20,444 nucleotides of DNA from a virus. The position numbers were made by a program, and so were the translations under genes. The notes beneath the pieces were generated by a model. The model worked only from the letters and a program-made list of their open reading frames with translations. It was not told the DNA's origin and did no database searches. Positions 1,569 to 20,001 of this stretch are shown piece by piece (within the stretch, counting starts at the first letter, position 1; each line of letters starts with the position of its first letter). The stretch covers positions 128,001 through 148,444 of IMG/VR virus record IMGVR_UViG_3300045988_163304; one strand, written 5' to 3'.

Positions 1569-1595
1569 AGTGTTATTTCCTCCTTGTATTTTTAA

Positions 1596-2926: not shown

Positions 2927-2948
2927 GTTTTCAATCTCCTTTTACTCA

Positions 2949-4103
2949 TTAAAACAATGATTCTACTACTATAGTTTTTCGACTAGTTCCATAAACTAAA
3001 TCAAACTAACCGCTATAAGTAGAATCCCATTTAAGTTTAATTGTTGCAAATCCTTTATCATTAGTTCCTTCACTAATAATTCGGACAGGAACATCATTAC
3101 CTTCAATTTTCCAAGTTCCTCGAACATTTTTAATATTTAAATTAAAATCATATTCTTTTTTAGGCTTAATAAAGGTTTCACCAACTATATTTAAAATTTT
3201 ATTATTATCTTTGTTATCATCTATAATTTTACGTTTTAGTATTGGGTCTGGTATTTTAAATACATCAGCTAATCCTGCATCTCGGTCATCTGTAAACTCA
3301 TTAGCATAATATTCAACAGCATTTACTTCAATAACGCCAGTCATGCTAATATTATTTACAGCTTCAACTCTCCAGCAGGTATCATAAACTGAACCGTCTT
3401 CCGGCCAAATATAAAACTTCTAATAACGCTTAAAAAATTTCAAAGTTTTTTCATTTTTAGGAATTAATAAATTTAAAGAATAATTTGGATTGTCTACGCT
3501 AGTAGTATGTTTTTGAATATAATCAATTTTAGTTTCTACTGGACCTCGGTTAGCCACATAAACTACATTTAATTCATCATCCATCATAAATGGAATTTGA
3601 TAAGTACATCTACGAACATCTCCGCGAAAATAAGCTAATTCATCTAAATCCTATAAATAAATTAACCAATAAGTTCCAGTATTACACCATTCAAATACAT
3701 CTCCACAATTAAATTTATGTTCAAATCCAATTGAAATAACTTTATCATCATAATCCTATTTTAATTTATTAGGATTCATTAATGCTCGAACAGGAGGTAA
3801 AATATTTTTTTCTTTTTTAGTTTCTACCTCTGTAGCCGCACATTTACGCACCCAAGCCGCCTAATAAGAATATTTAGTAGCTTGGTCTAACGAATGTCGT
3901 TTATCTTTGATCATTCGCTACTGTTGGGCAAAACCACCCGCACTCATTAATCTTTTAGCCATATTTAAACTACCATCAACTGAATCTGGCTAAGGAATTT
4001 TTATACTTGTATCACCTAAACGAGCCCCTACAAGATTTACACTTTTATTAGTATTTAAACCATAAGGCAATAATTTTTCCATTTTTTCTGGACGTTTTGG
4101 CAT
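2949..4103 (-). CDS. hypothetical structural protein, 384 aa, 8 in-frame TAG
   Basis: AGGAGA ribosome-binding site then ATG 4101-4103. Continuous translation through TAG at 3990, 3918, 3861, 3756, 3651, 3420, 3006 and 2997. Includes track ORF 3006..3344. TAA at 2949-2951. Confidence 0.6.
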
Positions 4104-4363
4104 TACTTTCTAATCTCCTATAATAAACTAATACATTCAAATACAGTTTTTCTATAAATTGAGAATTCAATATCATTTAAAACATTTAATCCTTCTAATT
4201 TACTAAGCAACTATAAAAATCGCGGGTCCTAAATAAAAATTTCATTTAAGCCCGCAATTTCAATAATAACTGTATTTAATTGTTTATCCCAATCTTCTTC
4301 ATTTTCTCTCATAGGGATTAATTTCCACAGTTGATTAGTTAATCTTACTATATTTTTTTCCAT
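4103..4363 (-). CDS. small hypothetical protein, about 86 aa, 3 in-frame TAG
   Basis: ATG 4361-4363. Reads MEKNIVRLTNQLWKLIPMRENEEDWDKQLNTVIIEIAGLNEIFI[Q]DPRFL[Q]LLSKLEGLNVLNDIEFSIYRKTVFECISLL[Q]EIRK. Stop overlaps the next start as TAATG. Weak ribosome-binding site. Confidence 0.4.
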
Positions 4364-4391
4364 GACTTCATCGGAAATATCTGTATGATAT

Positions 4392-4979
4392 TTAGTTATC
4401 ATAAGGATAATTTTTATAATGAAATACGCCCCAATTGGATTCGTATTTCCCTTCTACTAATTTACGACGTTTATATAAACGTTGCATATGAAATGATTGT
4501 CTCTAACATTCACTCAGTAAAGACATCAATTTTTGTAAATGATTAGCCTATGAAGTCATTTTAAAATCTGAACCACTATACTTCATACGAGTGTGTTCAA
4601 TAGAAGTAACTTGGCGCTATACCCAATTTACCATCATCAATATAGCTAAAATATTAATTTCCTCCGGTGTTAATTCAGCTCCAAAAGATGAATGTTCTAC
4701 CATTACACGAGGAGGGCGGATTTCTGATTCTTCATCTGTTTCATCTTCCCACAAAAGACCAATTACAAAATCATCTTCTAATATTTCATCTTCATATTTA
4801 ATTTCCTAATCAATAGTATAATCATAAATATCAAATCTAGGAAATTCAAATTCAGGTAAAATATTTAAAAGTATCGCACGTAAATCTTTAATTGTATCTT
4901 CTGGAGTTAATTCAATATAAAGGTCATCAGTAATTTTCCCAAGGAAGCGATTATAAATATCAGTGAATTTAGTTCCCAT
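4392..4979 (-). CDS. hypothetical protein, 195 aa, 4 in-frame TAG
   Basis: GGAGGCG ribosome-binding site then ATG 4977-4979. Reads MGTKFTDIYNRFLGKITDDLYIELTPEDTIKDLRAILLNILPEFEFPRFDIYDYTID[Q]EIKYEDEILEDDFVIGLLWEDETDEESEIRPPRVMVEHSSFGAELTPEEINILAILMMVNWV[Q]RQVTSIEHTRMKYSGSDFKMTS[Q]ANHLQKLMSLLSEC[Q]RQSFHMQRLYKRRKLVEGKYESNWGVFHYKNYPYDN. TAA stop. Confidence 0.6.
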
Positions 4980-5000
4980 GATACGCCTCCTATTTATTTA

Positions 5001-5588
5001 TTATTCAGCAGATTTAGTTTCAGTTTGCTTTACTACTTTGTAAGCACTTCCAGATGTACGACGTCCTGCAGGAGTAGATTCTGTAACACGTCTTTCAGCT
5101 GGCTTATCTGCGATAGTTTCCTTTTTATCGTCTTCTTTACTAGCGCGGTCATTTTCAATAGCTTTATCTACATCAAAACCAGTTTTAGCTTTTAAAGCTT
5201 CACGCTTAGCCATATCAGTAATGGGTAATTGAACAGACATGGTTTTAATCAAATCAATAACTCCAATAGGAGCAAAATCAAGAGCATCTAAAAATGCATC
5301 AATAGAACCACTAAGAATTAAATCACGCACTTGCTCTTCTGACATATTATATTCAGGTTCACGATGAACATTTAAATCATCAGTAACTTCATTTTCCATA
5401 ATCTGTAAGAAATTAGCAATTAATTCACGTCCACCAGGTTGGTAAGTCAATTTTTCTAGTTCCCCAAATGGAATGCGCTTCACCTCACCGGGCGCCCATT
5501 CGCGTCTCAAATTACTCTCAGGAATTCTATATACAACAACACTAGTACTTCTATTTTTTACATTAAACATATCTTCAGAACGAATCAT
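5001..5588 (-). CDS. hypothetical head-associated protein, 195 aa (basic C-terminus)
   Basis: Intact track ORF with no TAG. Lies directly downstream of the capsid gene and its terminator. TAA stop. Confidence 0.75.
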   Translation of the reverse strand: MIRSEDMFNVKNRSTSVVVYRIPESNLRREWAPGEVKRIPFGELEKLTYQPGGRELIANFLQIMENEVTDDLNVHREPEYNMSEEQVRDLILSGSIDAFLDALDFAPIGVIDLIKTMSVQLPITDMAKREALKAKTGFDVDKAIENDRASKEDDKKETIADKPAERRVTESTPAGRRTSGSAYKVVKQTETKSAE

Positions 5589-5605
5589 TTTATTATCTCC
5601 TTTTT

Positions 5606-5650
5606 CTCTAAAAAAAATAAGGGGAGAGGGAGTAAATCCCTTCTCCCCTT
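5606..5650 (-). terminator. rho-independent terminator after major capsid gene
   Basis: Hairpin AAGGGGAGAAGGGATTTACTCCCTCTCCCCTT on the minus strand plus a U-run. Near-identical motif to the terminator at 397-440. Confidence 0.6.
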
Positions 5651-5676
5651 AAATGAAATCTATATTAAGGTTTAAA

Positions 5677-6783
5677 TCAAATTTGTCCACTTAGACGTCC
5701 ATCATAGGTAACAACCTTACCAGTTACACCATCATAGTTCCAAGTATACATCTGACCCATTAATGAAGTATCAACATAAGAGCAAATGTTGTTAGCCAAC
5801 ATACAACCAACGCCGACCTTCTTATAAACCTGAATCTCACGAGAACGATCATAATTGCTGAATTCATCAACAATAGTTCCACCCTCGAAAGCAATCTTTA
5901 CAGGCTTGCCATCAACACCAGTAGGAATAATCCAAGCGTAGCCAGGATCAATAACCTTACGGGTATTACTTTCATCCTCGAAGCCCTGCTCTAGAATAAC
6001 AACTTTGGTTCCCTTATAAGAAGCCAAACGACCAGTATTCCACAGCTCAGTCTTCATAGCTTCAGTATAACGCCAAGCTTCATTAGGAATCATACGAACA
6101 GCAAATTCATAAGTACAATAAATAGTAGGAGTACCATAAGCAGAAGCGATGGTAATCAAACGATCCATAGCACCCTCATCGAAACCTGCTGCAGCAACAC
6201 GGTTAGCAGGAGGTAGCTGATTAATAGAAGACTTCAAAGCCAAAGCAACTTCCTTGTAAATCAGTTCATCCATACCATCCATAATAATCTTGGTAACTTC
6301 AGCAAAATCAACACGACCATCTAAGAACTCTTCGAAGCCGATTTGAGCAGCTCCGCCGATAGCAGAGGTACGAACCTCAAAGCTCTCGTTTTCAGCAGGT
6401 CCCAGCTTGAAGACTTCATAGATACCAGCCAGTCCAACGCGAGTCACAAACTGCTTAGCACGTGCGCGTGTGTTTAGAGGACGACGGAAAATGGGCTTAT
6501 CACCCTGAGCAAACTGCTTAACTTCAGCAAACTGCTCATAAGATTGAGAAACCTTCTTAGGAAGAACTTCATCCAAAGTCTCCTCAATCATTGAGAAAAT
6601 TAAATTTTTATTTTCACGATATAGAGCATTAGTGCCAGCCAGCTCATTCATCTCATTACGTAAAGTATCGTTCAGAGCCTCATAAGAAAGGTTCTGACCA
6701 TTATAACTGTAAGCCACAGGAGAAGAAGGATCAGCCTTAGCAACAGTCTTCATTAAAGCAACTAAATTGTTTCTATCTAACAT
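5677..6783 (-). CDS. putative major capsid protein (HK97-like), 368 aa
   Basis: Intact ORF, no TAG, TGA stop, followed by a strong terminator. Sits after a scaffold-like gene. Size and composition fit a major capsid protein. The call rests on gene order and protein features only; no homology search was run. Confidence 0.7.
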   Translation of the reverse strand: MLDRNNLVALMKTVAKADPSSPVAYSYNGQNLSYEALNDTLRNEMNELAGTNALYRENKNLIFSMIEETLDEVLPKKVSQSYEQFAEVKQFAQGDKPIFRRPLNTRARAKQFVTRVGLAGIYEVFKLGPAENESFEVRTSAIGGAAQIGFEEFLDGRVDFAEVTKIIMDGMDELIYKEVALALKSSINQLPPANRVAAAGFDEGAMDRLITIASAYGTPTIYCTYEFAVRMIPNEAWRYTEAMKTELWNTGRLASYKGTKVVILEQGFEDESNTRKVIDPGYAWIIPTGVDGKPVKIAFEGGTIVDEFSNYDRSREIQVYKKVGVGCMLANNICSYVDTSLMGQMYTWNYDGVTGKVVTYDGRLSGQI

Positions 6784-6800
6784 TATTCTTCTCTCCTTTC

Positions 6801-7736
6801 TTACGCAATACGTAGAATCTTAGCGCCACGTTGTCCATCAGGCATAGTATATACCTTAACAACCTGCCACTTCATATCCTGACTCTCATCTTTTACAAGA
6901 ATTCCGTCAGCAGCTGCTGGAGCTAAAATATCACCAACAGAAACACTATCTTCATTAATCATATTAGTAGTATAATGATCACCAACATTAGTCTTGAAGA
7001 CACGAGGAACCATTGCAGTACCTGGAGTCATGCGCTTCTCATGATAAACACCAAGCTTCTTATATGGATCATTAGTCCAAGTCAGCTCTTCGTAAATGTC
7101 AGCGACATCAGTTAGAACCTTATCATAAGCATACTTTACAGGCACAGGAGTCTTAGTCTGATTGGTCTTAGGATCAATTTCATACTCTACACCATTATAA
7201 GTAAACTTATTGTCCTTAACATCATAAACTTCGCCAGCGATGGTAACAGTCTTTAGACCCTGGTCTAAAGCAACAGTGTGCTCAAGTACCTTGTGGTCAG
7301 CACCAGTTTCATCAACACCATTCCAGAAACGTCCACCATATTCAACCTCAGTATGCTCCCAATCATATGGAGAATAAATACGAGCCTGATAGTCGTCCTT
7401 TAGCATAGCAAATTCGCAATCCCACTGCTTAGTTCCATCAGGATGATCGCGATATAACTTAATCTCATTATAAACTAGCATCCACTCACCCTTGCCAGTA
7501 AAATTCACTTCACCAATACCATTGGCATTAGCAGCGTAATCATACTTGACAAACTGGCCGTTTTCAAGAATATTAATATCCTTGTTAGCAGGCAACTGAG
7601 CATAAATTTGAGCGGTTCTTTGTGCAGACAGGTGATTTGGCTCAACCTGACCATAACCAAACTCAACATACTTAGCCTGTGACTTAGGTGGATTCTTACC
7701 AACGCCTAAATGAGAATTTAAAAAATCCTTAAACAT
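6801..7736 (-). CDS. hypothetical head protein, 311 aa
   Basis: Intact track ORF between the scaffold-like and capsid-like genes. No TAG. Confidence 0.75.
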   Translation of the reverse strand: MFKDFLNSHLGVGKNPPKSQAKYVEFGYGQVEPNHLSAQRTAQIYAQLPANKDINILENGQFVKYDYAANANGIGEVNFTGKGEWMLVYNEIKLYRDHPDGTKQWDCEFAMLKDDYQARIYSPYDWEHTEVEYGGRFWNGVDETGADHKVLEHTVALDQGLKTVTIAGEVYDVKDNKFTYNGVEYEIDPKTNQTKTPVPVKYAYDKVLTDVADIYEELTWTNDPYKKLGVYHEKRMTPGTAMVPRVFKTNVGDHYTTNMINEDSVSVGDILAPAAADGILVKDESQDMKWQVVKVYTMPDGQRGAKILRIA

Positions 7737-7754
7737 TTAAGTATGTCCTCCTTA

Positions 7755-9341
7755 TTAGTTTTTATTGGCTGATTCTAGAACAGCCTTGACCCAAGCTGGC
7801 ATTCCAGCATCTCTGTCATCATCTAAATTGCTTAAATTATAGGTAGTTGGGCCTTTATTATTATTATCATCATCAAGGTTAAAATTAACCTTGTTGCGAA
7901 CACAAATAACAGAAAGTTTTGCTTCAATATCATCAACAGAATACTTATCAATGTTATCAATAACATCTTTCTTATCATCATCAGACAGCATATAGAATGA
8001 TTGAATCATAGCTTCTTTGTCCTTGCGCTCAATACTATTTTTAAACTCAGTCAAAGAAGTATTAGTTTCACTTAGAGCCTTATTTTCAGCTTCTAACAAA
8101 CTAAATTTATTTTGCAACTCTTCATATTCTACCTTTAAGCTAACATATTCTTCAATTTCATCTAAGGAATACTTTTTCTTTTTCTTTTCATCCTTATCAT
8201 CTTTTGAAGGATCATCATCTTTATTTTCTGACTTTTGACCATTATTTTTAGAAGAACCATCATCTTTTTTATTCTCAGGGTCGCCAGAATTATCGCCCTT
8301 ATCATCGTTTGCCTTTTTATTTTCTTCTTCTTGCTTTTTCTTAAATTCGGTTTCATAAGCTTCAACCGCCTCTAAAGCAAATTGAGGCTCTGCCGCTGGA
8401 GTATAAGATTTAGTCACTTCAATTAAACCTTCACCAGGAACAAGATCATCAGAATCACTCAAAGAAAAGTTTAAACGATAATATTTCATATCTCCGCGAT
8501 CTTGAAGAATAGCAAATTTTTGACTATTATCTTCAAAAACGCCATCAATACGATACTTAGAGCAATAATTGTTAGAGCCATCAGGGAAAGCCTTATTTAC
8601 GTATTCCCATAAAGCACTCCATAGAGAATCTCCGATTTCTACGGCATATCTATTAAACACTTTTGCTCCTCCTTCTTTTAATAATTCTTTTAATTCATTC
8701 ATCATTGAGTATAGTTCATTTTTAAAACTATCATCAAATGAAAGAGAAAACTTTGTAATAGAGGAGCCTTCGAAGCAAGGTTCACACTCTTCTCCTAAAA
8801 TACAAAGTTTAGAAATAATTGCTTCATTAATAATGAAAAACTACGGCTTTCCATTATTATCTTTCGTCCAAGTTCCATCTAAAGTGCCTTCATCAAGTTC
8901 CATAGAATGATTATTACCCTACTCAATGATGCGCTTACATTCTGGATATTGGCCGGTCCATAAATATCCTTCAGTCATAAGATATTCATGTTCATTAACG
9001 CCATCATCTAAAAATTTCTAAAACCAAACCTTGGCACCTAAATCTACAAAACCATAAGGTTTAGTAGTGTCTTTCATTTCAAACTTTCCGTTTGAAATAT
9101 TAATAATTCTATTGTGTTCCTCAAAATCTCCATTAGATTCATTATAAAAACCAACAATAGGACTGCCAGGGAGACTATTAGCCATCTCCCTTGCAGTTTC
9201 TTTAGAAATAATGCTTCGATTGCGATTTGGTTCATCCCCAACGTAGCAAACTTTAATTTGGCATTTAGAAATCAAAGGATTAATAGGAGTTACATTAATA
9301 AATTCACAAGGCGTTTCAAGTTTAATACTTTGATGCTTCAT
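7755..9341 (-). CDS. putative prohead protease/scaffold fusion-like protein, about 528 aa, 3 in-frame TAG
   Basis: Track ORFs 9018..9341 and 7755..8705 are in the same frame (both ends = 2 mod 3). Translating the intervening 8706-9017 gives no TAA/TGA and three TAG (9018, 8919, 8841): ...GAKVWF[Q]KFLDDGVNEHEYLMTEGYLWTGQYPECKRIIE[Q]GNNHSMELDEGTLDGTWTKDNNGKP[Q]FFIINEAIISKLCILGEECEPCFEGSSITKFSLSFDDSFKNELYSMMNELK... The C-terminal part is K/D/E-rich low-complexity plus coiled coil, typical of scaffolds. AAGGAGG ribosome-binding site before ATG 9341. Confidence 0.55.
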
Positions 9342-9613
9342 GATTTACCTCCTTAATTCATTGACTCTTTATTTTTTATGGTTTTTTCACTTTTCTAATC
9401 ATCAGCCTTTTCAGGTCGCCCAGACTATTTTGTTTCAGTAGTCTGTTTTGTAGTAGTCTATTGATTACTACTTCCTGAATTATTTTGTGTTTTATTCTAA
9501 TTGTTTGAACCTTTATTACCCAAAACATCTTGACTACTCATAGTAGAAGACATTAATGGCGGGATCATAATTTCAGTTAATTTCAACACATCATTTTCAA
9601 ATACCGCAGTATT
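9342..9613 (-). promoter_or_regulatory. intergenic region upstream of the head-morphogenesis operon, with GTAGTC/GACTAC inverted-repeat hairpins
   Basis: CAGACTA-N11-TAGTCTG at 9421-9445, GTAGTAGTC-TATT-GATTACTAC at 9451-9473, and TGACTACTCATAGTAG at 9531-9546. No ORF. Largest non-coding gap in the late block. Confidence 0.45.
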
Positions 9614-11014
9614 TAAAATAAAACTCTAAGAATGACCAAGAGCAATTTGAGGTAGCATCTTAGAATAACCAAGTTGCGTTTGTTCTTTATACAATTTTGA
9701 CATTTCTTTATAATTATATTGTGTAGTTTCAAGCATATAAAATTTAAAACTATATTTCTTATTGTTCGCAACTTTCATCTTTACTATTCTATCAAAAAAA
9801 ATGTTAAATTGCAACAACAAGTTTCTAACAGTTGATTCATCATTGAGGATAGACTTCTCTAATGATAAATTACCATCAGTATTGAATAAATTTTGAGAAA
9901 TACCTAAATTATTATAGACAGTACGTTCAACTTTTGCTAAATCATCTGTAGTAGTTGTAGTATTTTTATCTGATAAATCAATAGATTGAACATCAGTAAA
10001 TGTTGTTAAAACATCAACACCAATAGCTCTTGATAACATAGCAACAGCATTATTATGTATATCACGAGATTCATCAATATCAAATATTAAATCACCATTT
10101 TTATCCATAGGAAGTTTTTGAACAATAATTTTTAACAACTTCTACATTTGTTTTCTGCGATCTAAATCTTGAGCAGCGTCTAAATCCATGAGAGCAGGGA
10201 TAGAATTGATAAATGGTGGTGTATCACTGCCATTAAAATTAAATTTCACACTTAATTCTGGAGATAGTAAATACCAACTTCCACTATAATCTCCCTTAAT
10301 ATCAGGAAGTAATTTTCCCTTCTTATATAAAACATATCCACGCTAAAATTCTTCAGGGAATAATTTTAATACGCGCATACGATAATTAGGATCTGGAAAC
10401 TAATCAAAAAATCGCATATCAAACTCAATTGCTGGCATACCAGCCACAAAGTATCTAGAACGGCAATAACTAGCAGGCAATTCTTGTAACATTAAACTAT
10501 TTGCAGATTGCACTATATATCCATAATAACAACCATTTTTCATAATACTTTGAGCAATATCACCGCAGATTTTTTTAATATAAGTATTATCTAAGTAATT
10601 TAATAACTTTGAGAAATCTTTTAAAACTTTTTCATCTTTTACCGTATCATCTAAAATCTCTGGAGCGACATACCAATCATATCTATACAAATAAGCAAAA
10701 TAATTACATACTCGCTCATAAATACCGCTAATATCATAAAATAAATTAGAAATTCTACGCATTTCAACAATATCACGATTTATCATAGCTCGTAATACAT
10801 CATTTTTAGTGACCATGCGACATGGACCACGACGATTAGGATATAAACGAGCAAATGACCCTAAATCTAATACAGCATCATCTAATGTTTGAACTCCAAC
10901 TTTTATTTTACGATATTCTGTTGGATCAGCAGTTCGATAATCACTTGTTCCATTGCTGATATTAAATCCTTTGGAGTGGATGATTTCCTAACGTGATAAT
11001 TCTTTAGTATCCAA
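9614..11014 (-). CDS. putative portal protein, about 466 aa, 4 in-frame TAG
   Basis: Track ORFs 10400..10816 and 9626..10138 are in the same frame and joined by clean sequence across TAG at 10400, 10343, 10142 and 9626. Probable TTG start 11012-11014 after AAGGAGGTG ribosome-binding site. TAA at 9614-9616. Located just downstream of the terminase, as is usual for portal genes. Portal identity is inferred from position and size. Confidence 0.5.
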
Positions 11015-11026
11015 AATTCCACCTCC

Positions 11027-11383
11027 TTAATATCCAGCTAATTGCATTATATAATCATATGTAATAAGATTCTCGTCTGTATAAGGAATCTCTATTAATT
11101 TAAAATCATGTAAAGCACAAAAACGTCGTTTCTGATTATCATTATACTGTTGTTGGTATAAACCTTTTTTACCACCAAATTTCGCACTAGGCTCATAATG
11201 CTATTTACCCTAATATTCAATAATAAAATCAATTCTACCATCATCATCAAAAACGACAAAATCAAAACGTAAAGGTCTACCACTTGGTGCTTTTAAATCT
11301 GGAAAAATATATTCCATTTTAAATGGTAATTCAGCTTGTCGCAAAATCTCTTCAATTTTAATTTCGCCTCTAGACGCTCTCAT
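11027..11383 (-). CDS. small PD-(D/E)XK (DUF559/Vsr-like) endonuclease-like protein, 118 aa, 2 in-frame TAG
   Basis: GGAGGTAATT then ATG 11381-11383. Reads MRASRGEIKIEEILRQAELPFKMEYIFPDLKAPSGRPLRFDFVVFDDDGRIDFIIEY[Q]GK[Q]HYEPSAKFGGKKGLYQQQYNDNQKRRFCALHDFKLIEIPYTDENLITYDYIMQLAGY. The D...IEx(Q)GxxH pattern resembles the EvDGxxH core of DUF559 nucleases. Confidence 0.5.
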
Positions 11384-11393
11384 AATTACCTCC

Positions 11394-13127
11394 TCAATTT
11401 AAGAAACACCAATCTTTAGCATTAAACTTTTTACGTTTCTTCTTTTTATCTTCTTCTAATTTTAAATAATATAGTCCATATTCAAAAGCAGAAAATTTAT
11501 CTTTTCGGATACTTTTATTTGCTTGCTTCAGGATAATGTTTACTCCTTCAGTCTCTTCACGCAAATTCATCATTTCTTCTTTTAATATGGAAGTTAATGT
11601 AAATGGTTTTAATTCTTCTGCCCTCTATTCTGGAGTCATAGTTTGACCTTTCTTTTTAGCAAGGAGTTTATTTTTTGCTACGCGCTCATCAATTAAAAAT
11701 TTCACTTTTCCAGAAGCAAGTTGTGATTTGGCAATCGCATGAGCTTCTGTATTAAGTGGCGCATTAGCTTTTATAATATACATAGCATCTAATACTGTAT
11801 TAGATGTTTTATATTTTTTATAAAATAAATCATCATCATTGACAACGCCAAAATCAGGGAAAATTTCATTGGTTTCAGGATCAATCTATGTCTTAACCAT
11901 ATAATCAATTAAACCAATTCCTAAACCATTACCATCAATTACAATTCTATCAGCATTATATTTATAATATAATTTTTTTAATTTAATAGTTTGGTCTTCA
12001 AAATGTTCATCAGATAATGTGTATATATTTACTAAACTTTTAATTGAACCACCTTGTGATTGTGGAGTCACTTTAAATACGCAAATGACTGAATCACATC
12101 CTTTACGACCGACATCAACAGCAAGTACATAAGATGCTAATTTTGAATTACGCCCAGATGCTTCATATTCAGGCTAATTTAATATTCTATTTCTATCAAA
12201 TATTTCAGCATTAAAAAATGCATCTTCTACTGTGCCAGACCATTTACTTTCATATTCTCGGTCAAATGAACTTTCATTGAACGTTCCGTCCATTTTTAAG
12301 TCTTTAATAAAATTCGCATCTAATAATTTCATTAAAACAGGAATACGATAAGTACCACCCATAATGATAGATTGCTAAGGTTTAACAATCTCCCAAACTA
12401 ATAATTGAATTAATTTATCATAAGGGAAAGTATTTTTATATCCAGCAGTAGTAATATAAATTTGAGATTTATTAAGAGTTTCATCGGGTTGAGTAGTACC
12501 ATCCATACACATACGAGAAATATTCATTGTAGGAATAATAACTTGTGATAAAATATCACCATCAACACCAACGCACTCTTCAATTAAACCGCCGTGGCGG
12601 CGTTTACCACGAGAAGACTCTCTTGCAGCAATATTATCGAAATATGAACCATTTTTAAATACATATTTAACATAATCTTTACCTTCAAGTGTCTAACCAC
12701 GACGCCAATCTATTTCTTTCTAAAATGCAGGAATAAGAGTACAAATTTCTTGAACTTTTTCTTTTACAATTCCAGCCGCTTGTTCTTTACCACCAGAAGT
12801 AATAAATAATTTGCATCTAGGATATAGAATAGCACGACACATTAAGACCATCATTGATAAAAAAGATTTTGAATAAGCACGAGGGAATACAGCATAAATA
12901 TATTTATGACGCATCGCAGCGCGCAAAAAGATTCTCTAATAAAAATAGAGTTTAAAATGTTGAGGGCCGCCATCAGGCCCAGCCATAAAGTCGATAAACA
13001 TATCTGGATATTCTCTCCAAAAGGCTATGTACTATCTTGCTTCTGGTATAATCGCACGAAGACGGTCCTCTGAAATTCCAATCTTTTTACGCTTCTAAGA
13101 TAAATCAAGTAAATCCTATAAAGCCAT
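11394..13127 (-). CDS. terL: terminase large subunit, about 577 aa, at least 6 in-frame TAG
   Basis: ATG 13125-13127 sits one nt after the upstream TAA. N-terminus reads MAL[Q]DLLDLS[Q]KRKKIGISEDRLRAIIPEAR[Q]YIAFWREYPDMFIDFMAGPDGGPQHFKLYFY[Q]RIFLRAAMRHKYIYAVFPRAYSKSF (terminase N-terminal motif plus deviant Walker A). Includes track ORFs 12720..12926, 12174..12362 and 11886..12071. The last carries VIDGNGLGIGLID, a nuclease-domain Asp motif, followed by ...GVVNDDDLFYKKY...LDAMYII. TGA stop at 11394-11396. Confidence 0.7.
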
Positions 13128-13128
13128 A

Positions 13129-14325
13129 TTATCCTTCTAAATTCCTTAAAGTCTAAGCATCTATTTCAGACTCTTCCTCAAGGAAATCATTATATTCAAT
13201 TAAATCTTCATCTTTAAGATGATCGATTTCTTCCATCGTTAAATCTTCTTCAATATCTTGATCTTCTTCTTTATTTTCCTCTTCTTGCATTTTCTTAATA
13301 GCCCCTTCAATGAGATTACCTAGATTCATCTCTTCAGTGACTAATGTGTGTGTATAATTCTTTAAATCTTGTAAAGTTTCATCAACTTTATCTTTTGGAC
13401 CTTCTGTATAATACCGAGGAATAAATCCTTCAGTCTCACACATGGCCACTAATTCTCCAATAGAATCAAATGCTTCTCCTGTGTCTGCTTTATTTTGAGC
13501 GGCGGTGAAATTACCTGATTTCATTAGACTATCATAAACCTTGCTCATCTTTTGAAAACCTTCGATATCACCAATATCGATCAACTAGTTTGCTTTTAAG
13601 GATGTCTTACAAATTAATTTTAATGTATCAATATGACCAGCGCCGCGAATATCATAAGAACTCATCATTTCTTCATAAAGTTGCTCTAGTTTAACCCATT
13701 CTTCGGGTTTATACGCTTTACCCCACTTCATACGAAGATATAAAATATCTTCTTCTGTTAAATCGAGGTCATCTGCTGGGTCATGTTCAATACCATTCTA
13801 TTGATCAAAATAATTATCACCATCTCTAAAACGTTCTGGCAATTCAGGAGTATAAGGTTTTAATTCTTCTTCTGGAATAGCGACAGTAGATTTAGCAATA
13901 GCCGTTGCTATTTGCTAAGCATCATATCCTTGACGTTTCATAGTTTGCTCTAATTTATTATTAGCCACTTCCTATAAAAACTCAGAATCTTTCCATCGAT
14001 AATCTTTATATTGTTTAAGTTTCATTTTGGACAAATATCTACCTAAAATACTCATACCAGTTAATTTAGATTTATCTTGTCCATATTTCATTAGTAATTT
14101 ACTCCACTCCTCTGGAACATAAGGTATATCAATTTCTTGTAAAATCCACATATAAGTTTCTGGATTCCAGTTATCTACAAGCATTGTAATACATTTTTTA
14201 CATTGAGGGAGTTTTCCATCATTTGGATATTTTTCTAAATTATTAGATGTATAAAACTGGTCAGCACCCATAGTTCTATTACATCGTTCACAATAATATA
14301 CTTTATTACTATTATCTACAGTCAT
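13129..14325 (-). CDS. zinc-ribbon plus acidic C-terminus protein, about 398 aa, 4 in-frame TAG (possible terminase small subunit, from position)
   Basis: AAGGAGGA ribosome-binding site then ATG 14325. Track ORFs 13972..14325 (CxxC...CxxC) and 13153..13584 (acidic tail) are in the same frame. The intervening 13585-13971 translates cleanly with TAG at 13972, 13915, 13798 and 13585, plus TAG 13153. TAA at 13129-13131 immediately precedes the terL ATG. Confidence 0.5.
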
Positions 14326-14367
14326 AATTTTCCTCCTTATATTTATCCAATAACAGGCCTCTCAAAA

Positions 14368-15432
14368 TTATAACTGTTTGCCCTTGTTTTTGGCATTACG
14401 GCATTTTTTACAAATACTATAATAGCCATCTTTACTGGTTTTATTTTTACTAAAATATTTATTATGTGCTAATTTAATTTGCCCACAGCGACTACATTTT
14501 TTATATTTACCTTTTGCTTTATGTAAATAATAATCATATAGGTATTGGTCTTCAGCCGCAGAGGCGATTAATTTTGGAATTTTATTGCGCCATAAACTAG
14601 AAATATATTCTAAGCTATGAGTAATATTAAATTCCTCTTGAATTTTCTTTTGAATGTCTATATTCTATAATCCATCAATTTTATATTCAACTATTCTATC
14701 ATATAAAGGATAATCTTTAAGAGCAATAGTACATAAATTATCAAAATCTTCCATAATATACCATAAATCTCTTTCAAAATCTCCCCAACTATCTTGTTTT
14801 AAACGAGAATAATTACATAAAATTGCAGAACATACTCTAGGATCTAATAGTGAAACGCCATCCGGGATTGGATAACCATCATCATCAAAAATGCAAGTCG
14901 TGTCCTCTAATGGAATAAAATTTCTTGAACGAGTAATTTTAGTCATAATAATTGGACGACGAACTGCATTTTTAATAACATACTAATCTTTACGCATTTC
15001 AATAATAGCACGTTTAATTATAAATGCTTCGCGCCCTTCACTAACTCGTAATTTGGCTTCCCAAGTAGTAATGGCGTCTCTTAACTATTTTAAATGAGGT
15101 ATTTCTTCTATATCTTTTTTAGTAATTGTAATTTTGGGCTAAAATATTGTATTTTTATTTTCAGTAATTAAATTATAAATTCCATCTTCGCCATTCTCAA
15201 ATTGGGAAACAAGACCTTCAAAAGATGTTTCACGTTTATTAACTGTTGCCATACGATTATCAGTTAATAATTTACGCTCCTTTTTCTCTTGTTTCTCCAT
15301 ACAAAGAATGATATAGTCCCCTAATATTTCTAAATATCGAGGAGAGGGGTCTGGGGTTTCCTCTAATATTTTCTTGACTAATTCATTTCTTTCTTCTGGA
15401 GTTTGTAAGGAATAATCTAATTTTATCATCAT
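14368..15432 (-). CDS. hypothetical protein, about 354 aa, 4 in-frame TAG, C-terminal CxxC-N-CxxC zinc ribbon
   Basis: GGAGGTA ribosome-binding site then ATG 15432. Track ORFs 15139..15432 and 14665..14946 are in the same frame and joined through TAG at 15139, 15085 and 14983. Extended through TAG 14665 to TAA 14368-14370 (...CSRCGQIKLAHNKYFSKNKTSKDGYYSICKKCRNAKNKGKQL). First gene after the leftward promoter. Confidence 0.5.
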
Positions 15433-15457
15433 TACCTCCAGATTTTTTTACGTCTTC

Positions 15458-15486
15458 ATTATACAAAAAATTTTTCCAGGTGTCAA
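15458..15486 (-). promoter_or_regulatory. sigma-70/sigma-A consensus promoter (leftward)
   Basis: Minus strand reads TTGACA (revcomp of 15481-15486), a 17-bp spacer, then TATAAT (revcomp of 15458-15463). GGAGGTA ribosome-binding site and ATG lie about 25 nt downstream. Confidence 0.6.
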
Positions 15487-15541
15487 ATTTTAATAAATGC
15501 ATTTAAAAAATTTTTAAACGATACTATTAATTGGAAAAAAT

Positions 15542-15570
15542 TTGACAATAAAAAAAATTTTTTGTATTAT
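15542..15570 (+). promoter_or_regulatory. sigma-70/sigma-A-like promoter (rightward) for the small-gene cluster
   Basis: TTGACA 15542-15547, 17-bp spacer, TATTAT 15565-15570. AAAGGAGAAG ribosome-binding site then ATG 15601. Arranged back-to-back with the leftward promoter and shares an A/T-tract spacer motif with it. Confidence 0.5.
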
Positions 15571-15600
15571 TATTATAATAAAAAATAAAAGGAGAAGTTT

Positions 15601-15999
15601 ATGGTAATTGCTATTATTATATTAAGTATATTATTAATATTATCTATTATATATAATGTATTGTTTACAAAAGGAGTCACTAAACTTCTTGACCCTGAAA
15701 ACATTGAACAAAAATATAATTTAATAGCAGATTATTATGCAGATGCAAATAATATTGAAGAAAGCTTTCCTTGTTGTTTATTATTATATCTTCAATTTAA
15801 TGCGAAAGAATCTGCAAAAATTGCAGACTTCTCTAATTATGAAAATTCTAATATAATCGCCTATTCAGTTTTGTCCAAGGGTCCGCCACCACCTGGATAC
15901 GCCAATCAACTGGAAGAAGACGGCTCTATAAGAATATTAGTCCGCAATGTTCGAGTAAATAAATATAAGGATGGTGAATATTTTTGGGAGCCTATGTAA
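15601..15999 (+). CDS. membrane-anchored protein, 132 aa (N-terminal TM helix)
   Basis: Track ORF with good ribosome-binding site. Hydrophobic N-terminus MVIAIIILSILLILSIIY. Confidence 0.65.
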   Translation: MVIAIIILSILLILSIIYNVLFTKGVTKLLDPENIEQKYNLIADYYADANNIEESFPCCLLLYLQFNAKESAKIADFSNYENSNIIAYSVLSKGPPPPGYANQLEEDGSIRILVRNVRVNKYKDGEYFWEPM

Positions 16000-16190
16000 T
16001 TGTTATCTTTTGGATAATCATTTCAGCATTAGTAATGTTTGAATATATTGATGCAATTCAAAGCGCCGGTGAAAATAAATTAATTGTTTGTTTAATATTT
16101 TTTATTGGTGGCCCAATATTTGCTGCGAGTGATTTATTACAAAAAATTTTAGATATATTTTTACCGGAAGGGTGGAATGGTGATGACTGA
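15984..16190 (+). CDS. small 2-TM membrane protein, about 68 aa
   Basis: Track ORF with TTG start overlapping the upstream gene. Two hydrophobic segments. Confidence 0.45.
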   Translation: MGAYVIVIFWIIISALVMFEYIDAIQSAGENKLIVCLIFFIGGPIFAASDLLQKILDIFLPEGWNGDD

Positions 16191-16209
16191 AAAATAGATT
16201 AAATATATT

Positions 16210-16500
16210 TTGAAAAATTTTAAACGAGGCACTACTATTCTATTTATGGGTGTATCATTTAATCAATATATTAATCTTGAACAATTAACTGAAGCAGGAT
16301 ATACTTGTATCCTATTAGGTGAAGGTCAAGATTATTGGCCCTATATTAAAAATGATATGATTATTTATATAGATGGTATTGGTAATAAAATAAATTGTTA
16401 TCCATTGCATTGTCCTATTTTTGTATACGATAAAAATCGAGTAATAAATACTAAAAATAGAGATGTGCGCGTTTGGGTAGAAGTGTTAAAAGAGGAGTAA
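16210..16500 (+). CDS. hypothetical protein, about 96 aa
   Basis: Track ORF. The start could be ATG 16246 instead of the alternative start used by the track. Confidence 0.5.
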   Translation: MKNFKRGTTILFMGVSFNQYINLEQLTEAGYTCILLGEGQDYWPYIKNDMIIYIDGIGNKINCYPLHCPIFVYDKNRVINTKNRDVRVWVEVLKEE

Positions 16501-16501
16501 T

Positions 16502-16795
16502 ATGAAAATTTATAAATATTTAATTGAAACTCCAGGGTCTACTCATATTATGGATCATTTGACAGATATTGTATCTACTGGATTAGATGTAAATAATAAT
16601 CCATGCGTATGGGCAGTTTATGATGAAAAAGCACCCAAAAAATATTTTCAAATTAATGCTGTTGGCACAGGTTGGGAATTGGATAAATATGTAAATAATA
16701 ATGACAAATATTTAGGAGTTATTAATGATGGCGAGTATATTTGGCATATTATTAAGTCTTCTGGAGAAAAATGTCATATAATGGAGGAGAAATGA
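16502..16795 (+). CDS. hypothetical protein, 97 aa
   Basis: Track ORF. ATG overlaps the upstream stop (TAATATG). TGA stop. Confidence 0.6.
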   Translation: MKIYKYLIETPGSTHIMDHLTDIVSTGLDVNNNPCVWAVYDEKAPKKYFQINAVGTGWELDKYVNNNDKYLGVINDGEYIWHIIKSSGEKCHIMEEK

Positions 16796-16799
16796 TTTT

Positions 16800-17117
16800 A
16801 TGGAAGAAGGAAAAAATTATTTTGATATTGTAATGCGAGAAGGCCAAGCAATAGTTCATAATGAAGGTTCTATTCATTAGGTTGATAGCTTAGGCCGTCT
16901 TGTTTTTCCTAAGAATTTAAGACAAAAATATGGTATTGCTCCTGGCGACCGTATGGAATTTTATACTATTGAATATAATGGTGAAGTTTATGTTGGAGTG
17001 CGAGTGAGTAAACGATATGGTAGTAGAATAGAGTATTTACGCGCTAAAGAAGTATTAGATGATTTAGGAATTGAAATTCCTCAAAAACTAACTGATGCTA
17101 TTAATGGAGTAATGTAA
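16800..17117 (+). CDS. AbrB/SpoVT (swapped-hairpin) family DNA-binding protein, 105 aa, 1 in-frame TAG
   Basis: ATG 16800, TAG at 16878-16880, then VDSLGRLVFPKNLRQKYGIAPGDRMEFYTIEYNGEVYVGVRV. This is a textbook AbrB/MazE-type motif lying directly after the TAG. TAA at 17115-17117. Shows TAG is read as sense on the plus strand too. Confidence 0.65.
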
Positions 17118-17118
17118 T

Positions 17119-17262
17119 ATGCCTAAATATAAAAGTTTTGGAAATGCGCTTGCTGCTAAAATGCAGAAAAAGGCTAATTATTATGCTACTAAAGCAGTTC
17201 ATCAAATTGTATGGGGTGAAAACCCTAAACGGGGTCGTCCTAAGAAGGAGAATAAGAAATGA
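17119..17262 (+). CDS. small basic protein with AT-hook-like motif, 47 aa
   Basis: ATG overlaps the upstream stop. Reads MPKYKSFGNALAAKMQKKANYYATKAVHQIVWGENPKRGRPKKENKK. It contains the RGRP AT-hook core. Confidence 0.45.
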   Translation: MPKYKSFGNALAAKMQKKANYYATKAVHQIVWGENPKRGRPKKENKK

Positions 17263-17342
17263 TTCTTGAAGCATTAGCATTAATAGGATTAATTTTATTT
17301 TTTCCTATTTGGCTTTTTGGTAGGAATAAGATTAAGAAGTAA
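17259..17342 (+). CDS. possible 27-aa hydrophobic peptide
   Basis: ATG within ATGA overlap with the previous stop. Reads MILEALALIGLILFFPIWLFGRNKIKK. TAA stop. No independent ribosome-binding site. Confidence 0.3.
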   Translation: MILEALALIGLILFFPIWLFGRNKIKK

Positions 17343-17354: not shown

Positions 17355-17408
17355 TACCGTTATTTGAATTGAAAAAAGTTTTACCGTTATTTGAATTGAA
17401 AAAAGTTT
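17355..17408. repeat. tandem direct repeat, 27 bp x 2 (TACCGTTATTTGAATTGAAAAAAGTTT)
   Basis: Two identical units at 17355-17381 and 17382-17408 immediately after the last AT-rich-part gene, at the composition junction. Confidence 0.8.
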
Positions 17409-17668
17409 TGGTGAGAGTTTGTACCAGCCAAACAAAAAAATAAAAAGCAAAAAAAATTTTTTCCCGAAACCCACCCCCCGGTCGGTTTTTATCTGAGAAA
17501 AAATCTGAACACTATCGAGACCTTCTTGGGCTTGGTGCACGCGGAAAGGCTAGACCATCCCCAATACAGCCCCTCAACTCGCAGAACCGCGAATGGGCGT
17601 CGCGGTCCTCATTCGCAATAAATACAAACTCCACAAAAAATCTCTCGCAAATTTGTGTATTCTGCCAA

Positions 17669-17697
17669 TAGACAAGCATCCTGAAATCTGGTATAAT
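17669..17697 (+). promoter_or_regulatory. promoter, TAGACA-17-TGgTATAAT (extended -10)
   Basis: -35 at 17669-17674, TG at 17689-17690, TATAAT at 17692-17697. Paralogous to the promoter at 19632-19660 (shared TGCCAATAGACAA). Confidence 0.55.
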
Positions 17698-17722
17698 AGT
17701 ATCATCAAAGGAGGAATGATCT

Positions 17723-17818
17723 ATGTCTATCATCTACAAAGTCGTGCGCTTCATCGTTGCGGTCGCCGCTATCGCTGGCACTGGTATCTTAATGTGCCTC
17801 ATCTGCCTCCCTCACTGA
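17723..17818 (+). CDS. 31-aa hydrophobic peptide (type-I-toxin-like or leader peptide)
   Basis: AGGAGG (17709-17714), 8-nt spacer, ATG. Reads MSIIYKVVRFIVAVAAIAGTGILMCLICLPH. TGA stop lies inside the terminator hairpin. Confidence 0.45.
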   Translation: MSIIYKVVRFIVAVAAIAGTGILMCLICLPH

Positions 17819-17830
17819 GGGAGGTTTTTT
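17806..17830 (+). terminator. rho-independent terminator
   Basis: CCTCCCTC-ACT-GAGGGAGG, an 8-bp perfect stem, followed by TTTTTT. Confidence 0.7.
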
Positions 17831-18033
17831 GTTGCCCAAAGATTGTTAAAAATTTAACGATGTAGCAAGATTGTTAAAAGATTAACAATGTAGCGAGATT
17901 GTTAAAAATTTAACAAACACTCAACCAAGAGAGAACAAGGACACGCACGGCACAGTGGACAAGGCAGAGCGAGCCAACGAGCGAGCGACCAACAGACAAA
18001 GAGAACAACACACAACACAACACAATGATAAAT

Positions 18034-18057
18034 ACATTGTTAATGTATTAACAATGT
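18034..18057. repeat. perfect 24-bp palindrome ACATTGTTAATGTATTAACAATGT
   Basis: Read directly from the sequence. It sits at the switch point between a T-poor flank (17921-18030) and a C-poor flank (18058-18127). Confidence 0.9.
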
Positions 18058-18079
18058 AGTATAGTAGTATGGTATGGTA

Positions 18080-18100
18080 GGGTGTAGGGCAGGGGTAGGG
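18080..18100 (+). other. canonical G-quadruplex motif GGGTGTAGGGCAGGGGTAGGG
   Basis: Four G-runs of at least 3 with 2-4 nt loops, inside a nearly C-free 70-nt stretch. Confidence 0.6.
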
Positions 18101-18513
18101 TGTAGGTAGTAGGTGGTGGAGGAGAGTAGACCAACAATAAGAGATGCGAACGCGCTTCCCACCGGTCGGCTCACCGGGAACCGCGCACCAATAAATCTAA
18201 TGTAAGTATTCCATTTCTCTTTTGGGTTCATCATCGTTAACGGCCCTAATCGCCCAAGAATAAGCCCTCGCACTATTGCCAAACAATACAGCAGGGCAGG
18301 TGCTGAACAACGCGTGTCCCACAATGCACAGTTTGCACAGAGGGGCGAGCAAGATTGTTAAACATTTAACAATGTGAGAACCAAGAGCAAGAGAGTAAAG
18401 AGTGCGCTTGCACAGGTAGCAAGGAGGATACACACGGCACAGTTGATACATTTGCTGACCGAGCAAGATTGTTAAAAAATTCACAATGTGTGGATGTGGT
18501 GAAGTTGCTGTTT

Positions 18514-18535
18514 GATTGTGAAAATTTTCACAATC
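18514..18535. repeat. perfect 22-bp palindrome GATTGTGAAAATTTTCACAATC
   Basis: Read directly from the sequence. Confidence 0.9.
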
Positions 18536-18675
18536 GCTGTTGGATGCCGAACACGGACGCCGCGCCCCTAACTTCACCACGTTAAAGTGTTAAAGAAAAA
18601 AAATCGCAAATCCGATTGTTAAAATAATCACAATCTCTGTCCCGAAAATAAGTAGGTTATTTTTGAAAAAACCCC

Positions 18676-18704
18676 TTGACAAATTGCCCCAAGTGTGCTA
18701 CAAT
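18676..18704 (+). promoter_or_regulatory. promoter TTGACA-17-TGTGCTACAAT with upstream TTTTTGAAAAAA A-tract
   Basis: -35 at 18676-18681, -10 TACAAT at 18699-18704 with TG at -15/-14. Paralogous to the promoter at 20369-20397. Confidence 0.6.
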
Positions 18705-18734
18705 GATTACAGTAAAACAAAGGAGGATGATACA

Positions 18735-18971
18735 ATGTCTAACATCTATGGAGTCTGCTACACCACCAAAGAGCCTGTTGTTTACAACAGAGGGACACAG
18801 TGGGAAAAAACCTGTTCTGATTTTCTGTTCGTTCAGGCACGCAAGGATAATGGCACGGAGCTGGTGGACAAGCTGAACGCCCTGCTTGCTGAGGGTGTGG
18901 AAAAGTACGAACTGCTGGACTTGACCAAGATTGACCATTTCTATCTTGCTCAGTCTGAGGAAATGTATTAA
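18735..18971 (+). CDS. small hypothetical protein, 78 aa
   Basis: AGGAGG plus 8 nt then ATG 18735. Reads MSNIYGVCYTTKEPVVYNRGTQWEKTCSDFLFVQARKDNGTELVDKLNALLAEGVEKYELLDLTKIDHFYLAQSEEMY. TAA stop. GC-rich codon usage. Confidence 0.6.
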   Translation: MSNIYGVCYTTKEPVVYNRGTQWEKTCSDFLFVQARKDNGTELVDKLNALLAEGVEKYELLDLTKIDHFYLAQSEEMY

Positions 18972-18984
18972 GGAGGAAATGACT

Positions 18985-19173
18985 ATGACACGCACTATCG
19001 CTAATACCTACATCTGCATCAACGCCGAGGGACAGACGCTCTCCATCATCGCCCGCACGGGCAACGAAGCCCACAACATTGCAATAGGGTTTCTACGGAA
19101 AGCCAACATCGTGAGCGTTCGCCGTGTGTTCAAGTCCGGCAAGCTGGGCAAGGAAATTCTGAAAATCAAATAA
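18985..19173 (+). CDS. small hypothetical protein, 62 aa (second gene of a two-gene operon)
   Basis: AAGGAGGA plus 8 nt then ATG 18985 (an alternative ATG is at 18979). Reads MTRTIANTYICINAEGQTLSIIARTGNEAHNIAIGFLRKANIVSVRRVFKSGKLGKEILKIK. TAA stop, then a terminator. Confidence 0.6.
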   Translation: MTRTIANTYICINAEGQTLSIIARTGNEAHNIAIGFLRKANIVSVRRVFKSGKLGKEILKIK

Positions 19174-19179
19174 AATAAA

Positions 19180-19203
19180 CAGGGCGCAAGCCCTGTTTTT
19201 TTT
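19180..19203 (+). terminator. rho-independent terminator CAGGGC-GCAA-GCCCTG plus T8
   Basis: 6-bp perfect stem with a GNRA tetraloop and a U-run. Confidence 0.8.
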
Positions 19204-19274: not shown

Positions 19275-19463
19275 ATGAAAAACATCTATGAAATCGAGAA
19301 CATCATCGACGAAATTCCCGCTGATGATTGGGCTGGCATTTGTAATCTGATGGACTACTACTATCAGTCGAATTTCTCCGCTGATGCTGAGCAGAGACTG
19401 GCAAGAGCAATCGCGCCTTACGGTTTAACCACAGAGGAAATCCTGACTTGGGACGCTGAGTAA
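19275..19463 (+). CDS. small acidic hypothetical protein, 62 aa
   Basis: Track ORF. Ribosome-binding site GAAATGAGGT. TAA stop lies in the terminator loop. Confidence 0.6.
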   Translation: MKNIYEIENIIDEIPADDWAGICNLMDYYYQSNFSADAEQRLARAIAPYGLTTEEILTWDAE

Positions 19464-19478: not shown

Positions 19479-19631
19479 ACTACTGGATTGTTAAAACTTT
19501 AACGAGCATCGTCGCGCCCATCAAGCACGTGGCGCCCCGAAATATTATACCACAGCAGTCCACCAGTTGTCAAGAGAAAAATGCGAAAATTTCGCACAAA
19601 ATTTGCTATCCCGATTTGTATAGTTTGCCAA

Positions 19632-19660
19632 TAGACAAAATGAAATAAGCATGTTATAAT
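19632..19660 (+). promoter_or_regulatory. promoter TAGACA-17-TGtTATAAT
   Basis: -35 at 19632-19637, -10 at 19655-19660. Paralogous to the promoter at 17669. Preceded by the 9th palindrome (19486-19506) and a perfect inverted repeat TGCGAAAATTTCGCA (19581-19595). Confidence 0.55.
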
Positions 19661-19692: not shown

Positions 19693-20001
19693 ATGATTAA
19701 CATTCGTTCTATCCGCAAACTGGGTGAAAATGATGGGCTGACGCTCAAAATGGGCAAAAAGGTAAACTATAAATCCGGCTGGCAGGTTGCCACAGAGGGC
19801 GTGGAATGTAAGACCGCACAGGAAGCCATTGACGCGGTGAGAGACTATGGCGGAAATTGCGGCGTATGGTTCAGCGAGGGCATTTATTACATCGACAAAA
19901 GCAAGCGCGTGGCGACAAAGCGTGAAGCTATGGAAATCGGCAAAGCGTGTAATCAAATTTCCGTGCTGAAATGGGCGACTATGACGCTTGCATACTGCTA
20001 A
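19693..20001 (+). CDS. hypothetical protein, 102 aa
   Basis: Track ORF. GGAGAT ribosome-binding site. TAA stop, then a terminator. Confidence 0.65.
   Translation: MINIRSIRKLGENDGLTLKMGKKVNYKSGWQVATEGVECKTAQEAIDAVRDYGGNCGVWFSEGIYYIDKSKRVATKREAMEIGKACNQISVLKWATMTLAYC

Follow-up and report, generated by a model that had tools for sequence, protein, structure and literature searches.

A dense array of Rex-type operator boxes between recoded and standard-code genes of a human-gut phage, and its possible link to host redox state

Our analysis revealed a dense array of palindromic boxes with the sequence of Rex operators on the genome of a human-gut phage. The window analysed here (20,444 bases, positions 128,001 to 148,444 of the IMG/VR virus record IMGVR_UViG_3300045988_163304; all coordinates below are those of the window) is part of a contig of 199,479 bp. 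Eight of nine boxes lie in a non-coding hub at 17839-18640, at a junction between recoded and standard-code genes that was also found in an independent assembly. Rex is a redox-sensing repressor that occupies an 18-bp palindrome as a dimer when the NADH/NAD+ ratio is low and is released as NADH rises. As the motif matches the published Rex site, the phage may read, or soak up, the redox sensor of its host. We infer that the hub is an array of operators for host Rex which couples early steps of the phage to the redox state of the host or titrates Rex, and we give this reading a probability of roughly one half. That this is a large TAG-recoded phage of Clostridia is part of what we regard as the best explanation. 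Rex operators as such, and host LexA boxes on phages, are already known; full-text literature searches for Rex sites on phage genomes returned nothing relevant.

Rex-type boxes in a non-coding hub

The original prediction, made from the letters alone, had described eight copies of a palindrome in this region and a ninth to the right of it, and all nine were confirmed where it had placed them. They are the complete set of matches to ATTGTKAA-N4-TTMACAAT with up to two mismatches in the window (starts of the 20-nt pattern at 17842, 17870, 17898, 18036, 18354, 18468, 18515, 18615 and 19487), with 0.21 matches expected from whole-window shuffles and nine reached in none of 100 shuffles. At the level of the 18-nt core TTGTKAA-N4-TTMACAA six of the nine sites are perfect and three have one mismatch; eight of these cores fall within 17843-18633 and the ninth begins at 19488. 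A first-order Markov simulation with the hub's own composition gave 0.002 sites with at most one mismatch in the hub, where eight are observed. Because the sites far exceed both expectations, local base composition, which had been named as a possible refutation, does not explain them. The hub and its boxes, which have no strand, are as follows.

17839-18640: non-coding hub with eight Rex-type boxes, defined by the site counts, by open reading frames (ORFs) broken in relatives and by the boundary in GC content and genetic code
17843-17860: box 1, TTGTTAAAAATTTAACGA, one mismatch; first tandem unit, beginning 12 nt past the T-run of the terminator at 17805-17825
17871-17888: box 2, TTGTTAAAAGATTAACAA, perfect; middle one of the three tandem copies
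17899-17916: box 3, TTGTTAAAAATTTAACAA, perfect; last of the three tandem copies
18037-18054: box 4, TTGTTAATGTATTAACAA, perfect; arms reach 12 nt
18355-18372: box 5, TTGTTAAACATTTAACAA, perfect
18469-18486: box 6, TTGTTAAAAAATTCACAA, perfect; T-type and G-type half-sites mixed
18516-18533: box 7, TTGTGAAAATTTTCACAA, perfect against the general Rex consensus; core of a 22-bp palindrome at 18514-18535
18616-18633: box 8, TTGTTAAAATAATCACAA, one mismatch
19488-19505: box 9, TTGTTAAAACTTTAACGA, one mismatch; outside the hub

The core agrees with the Rex consensus described for Clostridia and for other Gram-positive bacteria. Specifically, TTGTTAANNNNTTAACAA is given as the Clostridiaceae Rex operator consensus in PMC5367854, PMC8457756 and PMC9600882, which credit it to Ravcheev et al. 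2012, with support from DNA affinity purification sequencing (DAP-seq) and electrophoretic mobility shift assays (EMSA) in one of the three, and TTGTGAANNNNTTCACAA is the general Rex consensus of other Gram-positive bacteria (PMC5355995 and others). Our nine sites vary at a single core position (T or G), and it is exactly there that TTGTTAANNNNTTAACAA and TTGTGAANNNNTTCACAA differ.

The tandem of three copies at 28-bp intervals was seen as originally described. Two perfect palindromes had also been reported: the one at 18514-18535 is indeed perfect over 22 bp, whereas 18033-18058 is only near-perfect, with perfect 12-nt arms flanking a non-palindromic GT centre. Across 378 unique sites of the phage family conservation is 87-99% at every one of the seven positions in each half-site, the spacer is A/T-rich, and A-G-A is preferred ahead of TTGT. 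We considered and rejected an asymmetric flank (GCAAGA); 'AGA' adjoins either half-site roughly independently, and the site is therefore symmetric. The TGTA spacer of box 4 recurs in lineage B of the family.

The hub itself is non-coding. Its minus-strand ORFs at 18040-18324 and 18197-18580 carry one to four extra in-frame stops in all five close relatives compared, the former frame-shifting indels as well, and none of the hub ORFs has a ribosome-binding site. Coding in a homolog, the second refutation that had been envisaged, was rejected on these in-frame stops and frameshifts. Nothing credible was found for known RNAs in Rfam, at the gathering threshold or at E<=1, and no tRNAs were found. 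The predicted RNA fold of 18120-18352 was no better than shuffles (z -1.2 and -0.3), and alifold on six relatives showed no convincing covariation except for one pair in an 11-bp inverted repeat. This repeat (GTGGTGAAGTT / AACTTCACCAC, 18496-18506 / 18570-18580) surrounds box 7, and one of its positions changes jointly on both arms in relatives. Downstream of both box 3 and box 5 stands the same 22-nt sequence, AGGAYACRCACGGCACAGTKGA, as a direct repeat (17938-17959 and 18425-18446), which shows that a box was duplicated together with its flank in the making of part of the hub.

The GC content of the hub is 45%, and its composition is mirrored around box 4, with four T in 114 nt at 17917-18030 and one C in 73 nt at 18058-18130. 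The right tract contains GGG-N4-GGG-N2-GGGG-N2-GGG; in relatives the G-richness to the right of box 4 is kept while the sequence varies, the run of four G-tracts being judged by eye. Going by its composition, this tract might form G-quadruplexes or R-loops.

Conservation and distribution among relatives

About 90 related loci were obtained by a terminase search of IMG/VR and of metagenome-assembled genomes (MAGs); labels beginning with L denote single loci. When six close relatives are aligned, invariant positions make up 95.5% of the columns in the half-sites, compared with 75% of the columns in the N4 spacers and 77% in the rest of the hub (half-sites versus columns outside boxes, Fisher p = 7e-7). 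Such conservation of half-sites over spacers and surroundings shows that the sites are under selection. It is the pattern expected of a site for a dimer, and it bears out the original view that target sites of a dimeric protein are densely packed here.

Arrays of six to ten boxes occupy the same junction in lineages with 98%, 75% and 67% TerL identity. At least four boxes at this junction, just upstream of a gene for a 353-aa protein, were found in 27 of 99 fetched loci, which had been chosen by that neighbouring gene and some of which are overlapping pieces of the same contigs; the 27 span lineages with 65-98% TerL identity. Array size ranges from 4 to 31 sites between lineages. Arrays are absent from relatives with 87% and 80% TerL identity, and at the junction of L012 an AbrB-type gene and a promoter stand in place of the boxes. 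Since close relatives lack them, the arrays are an accessory, exchangeable module and not the origin or packaging site of the family. Following IMG/VR relatives over the next 10 kb beyond the window gave no further boxes.

A scan for two perfect boxes within 34 nt returned 43 viral loci, mostly of this family and some with 11-31 boxes. Separate viral contigs of about 50 kb with 46% GC (L104, L106, L107, L111, L113, L116, L120, L127) carry just one pair of perfect boxes, spaced 35 nt, within about 1 kb of non-coding DNA; they have no ORF family in common with the main family and are apparently unrelated to it. The largest array, 31 Rex-type boxes over 12 kb, was found in the early region (1-12459) of L101 (IMGVR_UViG_3300033463_001124), where the boxes lie mostly in pairs 33-35 bp apart ahead of promoters. 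In L101 they are accompanied by nine perfect CGAAC-N4-GTTCG boxes and, at 2723, by one perfect CIRCE element, which we take to be Gram-positive LexA boxes and an HrcA operator, respectively. LexA-type boxes occur in L094, L096, L108, L117 and L121 as well; the window itself has none. The LexA and CIRCE operators of L101 show that the family builds operators of host repressors into its early region. The relatives are mostly binned with MAGs of Clostridia/Bacillota; a search of GenBank phages found no relative.

Position of the hub in the genome

To the left of the hub (1-17300) the genes are TAG-recoded (genetic code 15): fragmented ORFs join when TAG is read as sense, and the minus strand of 1-15447 then consists of unbroken long genes with capsid, portal-sized and terminase-sized ORFs. 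In-frame TAG codons number 23 per 1,941 codons in the low-GC genes versus 1 per 2,506 to the right of the hub. The GC content rises from about 30% to 45-50% at about 17,450. This island of 45-50% GC inside a genome of about 30% GC reaches from 17450 to the window end and about 12 kb further in L001/L140; in close relatives the high-GC block is about 15 kb long and is followed by a stretch of 25-32% GC. The island is a string of small standard-code genes with sigma-A-type promoters, and within the window every small gene has a TTGACA-17-TATAAT promoter and a strong ribosome-binding site, most of them also a hairpin terminator. Judged by the boundary in TAG use, GC content and promoters, the hub thus marks the exact border at which the recoded genes give way to those open to direct expression by host machinery. 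Its position agrees with the published model of alternatively coded phages (bioRxiv 10.1101/2021.08.26.457843). A 27-bp element, CCGTTATTTGAATTGAAAAAAGTTTT, is present in two tandem copies at the end of the low-GC block (17357-17410), and in three copies in the box-less relative L012. The features around the hub are listed below.

9353-11026, 11394-13145 and 13129-14361, minus strand: long genes under TAG-sense translation
16800-17117, plus strand: gene for an AbrB/MazE-type DNA-binding protein of 105 aa with one in-frame TAG (Pfam PF04014, 27.5 bits, cut-off 24.7)
17669-17825, plus strand: first island cassette, with promoter TAGACA-17-TATAAT at 17669-17697; boxes 1-3 follow directly
17724-17819, plus strand: ORF for a hydrophobic 31-aa peptide, MSIIYKVVRFIVAVAAIAGTGILMCLICLPH, with its own promoter and its stop codon inside the terminator hairpin
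17805-17825, plus strand: hairpin terminator of the first cassette, seen in the sequence
18676-19173, plus strand: first strong promoter past the hub, TTGACA-17-TACAAT (18676-18704), and two small genes (18735-18971, 18985-19173); a candidate regulated unit
19544-19573, minus strand: perfect TTGACA-18-TATAAT promoter with TG, identical in close relatives

In the 31-aa ORF five of seven differences from L002 are synonymous, as read by eye from the alignment. The minus-strand promoter points leftward through box 9, antisense to the gene at 19275-19463 and against the cassettes; the predicted antisense RNA from 19573 would stop at a two-way terminator at 19177-19198.

With regard to these promoters the boxes take recurrent positions. 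The centre of box 8 precedes the inferred start of the 18676-18704 promoter by about 86 nt, a layout that recurs in L073 and L101. Seen from the inferred start of the minus-strand promoter, box 9 is about 40 nt downstream; it also precedes a promoter at 19632 by about 135 nt. Across the array-bearing loci the centres of the boxes are concentrated either 50-90 nt ahead of -35 elements or 25-45 nt inside the transcript, and at 575 promoters no box centre falls between -20 and +50 of a strong -35 element. Box 4 overlaps two weak divergent promoter-like sites, TTGTTA-17-TATAGT (plus strand) and TTGTTA-18-TATCAT (minus strand), each with 9/12 matches. The idea that the boxes themselves serve as -35 elements was dropped, as a -10-like hexamer at the right spacing is only about twofold enriched, which is unconvincing. 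A second promoter class has a TAGACA -35 element preceded by TTTGTRYR-N3-TGCCAA (17651-17675 and 19614-19638); the latter motif occurs in 23 loci of the family, some of them box-less, and may be a family-specific regulatory site.

Search for the binding protein

About 40 kb of the approximately 199-kb genome were covered in the search for a gene that could encode the binding protein. The nearest DNA-binding gene to the hub is the AbrB/MazE-type gene, so the original remark that no binder was evident among the adjacent genes needs amending; it holds in the sense that no gene within 9 kb tracks the arrays. The AbrB-type gene was rejected as the binder, as many array-less relatives have it and none was seen in the vicinity of the lineage B arrays. 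In an unbiased comparison of ORFs within 9 kb no family was common to more than 12 of 23 array-bearing loci. The 102-aa protein encoded at 19693-20001 was likewise set aside (12 of 23 array-bearing versus 3 of 37 array-less loci, no family match). Pfam and PHROGs searches found no regulator in the island, and no DNA-binding gene was found that is both adjacent to and co-inherited with the boxes, as in a repressor-operator module. A tblastn search with Rex of B. subtilis (checked against PDB 2VT2) found no rex gene in 2.1 Mb of fetched loci; Rex matches in the GenBank phage collection look like host fragments and were disregarded.

These results are in line with the suggestion made at the outset that the binder is encoded elsewhere, and with no linked gene found a host protein is the simplest candidate. 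The boxes of the unrelated 50-kb group, the Clostridia/Bacillota binning and the operators of L101 point the same way. Given that the motif equals the Rex consensus, a binder encoded elsewhere would most likely belong to the host.

Proposed function and alternative readings

The boxes stand at the head of the standard-code island, which host RNA polymerase would transcribe; if host Rex binds them, they could thereby make the start of the phage programme depend on the redox state of the host. At a low NADH/NAD+ ratio bound Rex would hinder transcription into and across the region, and a rise in NADH would lift the block. Boxes 1-3 could then block read-through out of the first cassette (17669-17825), and box 4 could mask the weak, divergent promoter-like sites (18037/18054) on which it lies. 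Box 8 could act on the 18676 promoter, and box 9 could block the antisense promoter at 19573. Upon replication the nine near-consensus sites per phage copy would pull Rex off host operators. One Clostridial genome has been described to contain only 27 predicted Rex sites, many of them imperfect, and against this number titration of Rex would be a likely side effect, or even the main purpose, of the array.

Several observations weigh against Rex as the binder. Rex operators usually overlap promoters; here the cores of strong promoters are free of boxes, and the sole overlap is that of box 4 with weak (9/12) promoter-like sites. Eight sites in 800 bp almost without promoters is unlike the normal layout of a Rex regulon. 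Dense arrays occur in essentially one phage family, which fits a family-specific binder encoded outside the roughly 40 kb covered. Lineage B has variant sites such as TTGTTAGTTA..TAACTAACAA, and these could mean that the binder co-evolves with the phage. The A-G-A flank preference lies outside the published Rex consensus, as far as checked, and the assignment to a host comes from MAG binning of phage contigs, which is weak evidence.

Much of this would be accommodated if the boxes were operators of a phage-encoded dimeric regulator, or of another host regulator, e.g. of the Crp/Fnr family, that resembles Rex in specificity. We see this as a minority possibility, albeit the one among the alternatives that we take most seriously. 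The gene of a phage regulator would lie outside the examined region of about 40 kb, and its product would control the early island as a classical repressor or activator. In addition to the restriction of dense arrays to one family and the variant sites of lineage B, the placement of boxes 50-90 nt ahead of -35 elements, in many cases in twos with a distance of 33-35 bp, looks more like activation or looping than like repression by Rex. Box 7 moreover contains TGTGA-N6-TCACA, which is a Crp-type site; however, conservation extends to the outer TT and the inner AA of the half-sites, both of them dispensable in a Crp-type site. A phage regulator has to contend with the ORF comparison within 9 kb, in which no family co-occurs with the arrays, with the lack of a regulator in the island by Pfam and PHROGs, and with an AbrB-type gene that fails to track the arrays. 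It is also at odds with the same boxes in an apparently unrelated phage group and with true LexA and CIRCE operators in one relative.

Those operators allow a broader version of host-repressor binding, which we offer as speculation and hold to be improbable as it stands. The family would wire its host-transcribed early region to several host stress repressors at a time, Rex for redox state and in some members LexA for DNA damage and HrcA for heat shock. Its arrays would be large enough to control the phage programme and to titrate the repressors as well, and phage replication would thereby reprogramme the fermentation and stress regulons of the host. If true, the phage would sense and take over its host in a new way, through DNA sites alone.

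Less probable still, we think, is an array that acts mainly as a decoy. Here the boxes would do little for phage regulation, and the replicated sites would titrate host Rex and switch on fermentation and NAD+-regenerating genes to the advantage of the phage. Eight near-consensus sites crowded into 800 bp that contain no strong promoter would suit such a role, as would an array size that varies freely from 4 to 31 sites between lineages, and a replicating phage would outnumber the 27 predicted sites of the Clostridial genome mentioned above. The fixed positions of boxes and promoters in relatives nevertheless point to regulation in cis, and a decoy depends on the predicted binding of Rex. We know of no precedent for a Rex decoy, and our literature searches found none.

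Two further readings are very improbable. One is a partition centromere, i.e. a ParB/KorB-type parS cluster of a phage persisting as a plasmid. Palindromes clustered in non-coding DNA would be expected of it, and the phage N15 offers a parallel in its dispersed centromere sites near promoters; the likeness to parS noted at the outset stands for the outer TGTT...AACA and its 8-nt spacing, which match the Firmicute parS TGTTNCACGTGNAACA, and fails for the inner eight positions, where the CACGTG-type core is absent and only the outer 4+4 bases agree. Searches by tblastn with unverified Soj and Spo0J query sequences found nothing in 2.2 Mb of family loci, the array is absent at 80-87% TerL identity, and L101 carries its 31 sites ahead of promoters. 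The other, about as remote, is a replication origin with the boxes as initiator-binding repeats and box 4 between a T-poor arm and a G-rich, C-free arm able to form R-loops or G-quadruplexes; the mirrored composition, the persistent run of four G-tracts (by eye, with varying sequence) and the weak divergent promoter-like sites at box 4 would fit, but the repeats are palindromic and not directly oriented iterons, the hub has 45% GC and no AT-rich unwinding element, Pfam and PHROGs found no initiator gene nearby, lineage B does not show the mirrored composition, and the array is missing at 80-87% TerL identity and dispersed over 12 kb in L101.

Significance and comparison with known systems

If host Rex does bind the array, then the start of infection, or the host fermentation genes, would be coupled to the NADH/NAD+ ratio, for which we found no report in the literature for any phage. 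This would provide a concrete link between the metabolism of gut anaerobes and phage activity, and the switch between recoded and standard-code genes, known from alternatively coded phages, would gain a further level of control at transcription.

Among the systems to which the array can be compared, the parS and KorB arrays of P1, N15 and RK2 likewise consist of repeated non-coding palindromes, some of them near promoters, and share the outer TGTT/AACA. They differ from it in their core; moreover, no ParA/ParB was found in the fetched DNA, and the array is not conserved among close relatives. Clusters of the lambda OL/OR type similarly place several palindromic dimer sites at the head of early genes, whereas no adjacent repressor or Cro-like gene was found here and many more sites are spread over 800 bp.

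The boxes resemble the Rex operators of Clostridia and other Gram-positive bacteria in the 18-bp palindrome TTGTTAA-N4-TTAACAA, in the TTGTGAA/TTCACAA alternative and in the A/T-rich spacer. Bacterial Rex targets usually have one or two sites per promoter, whereas here the boxes are on a phage genome, eight in 800 bp, with none on a strong promoter core.

Host LexA boxes are found on phages such as coliphage 186 (tum) and CTX-phi. As in those phages, the regulatory DNA of the present family would contain operators of a host stress repressor through which a host signal may steer the phage, and relatives carry Gram-positive LexA boxes and CIRCE beside Rex-type boxes. In contrast to LexA-controlled phages, the signal here would be redox state and not DNA damage, and a large array takes the place of a single operator.
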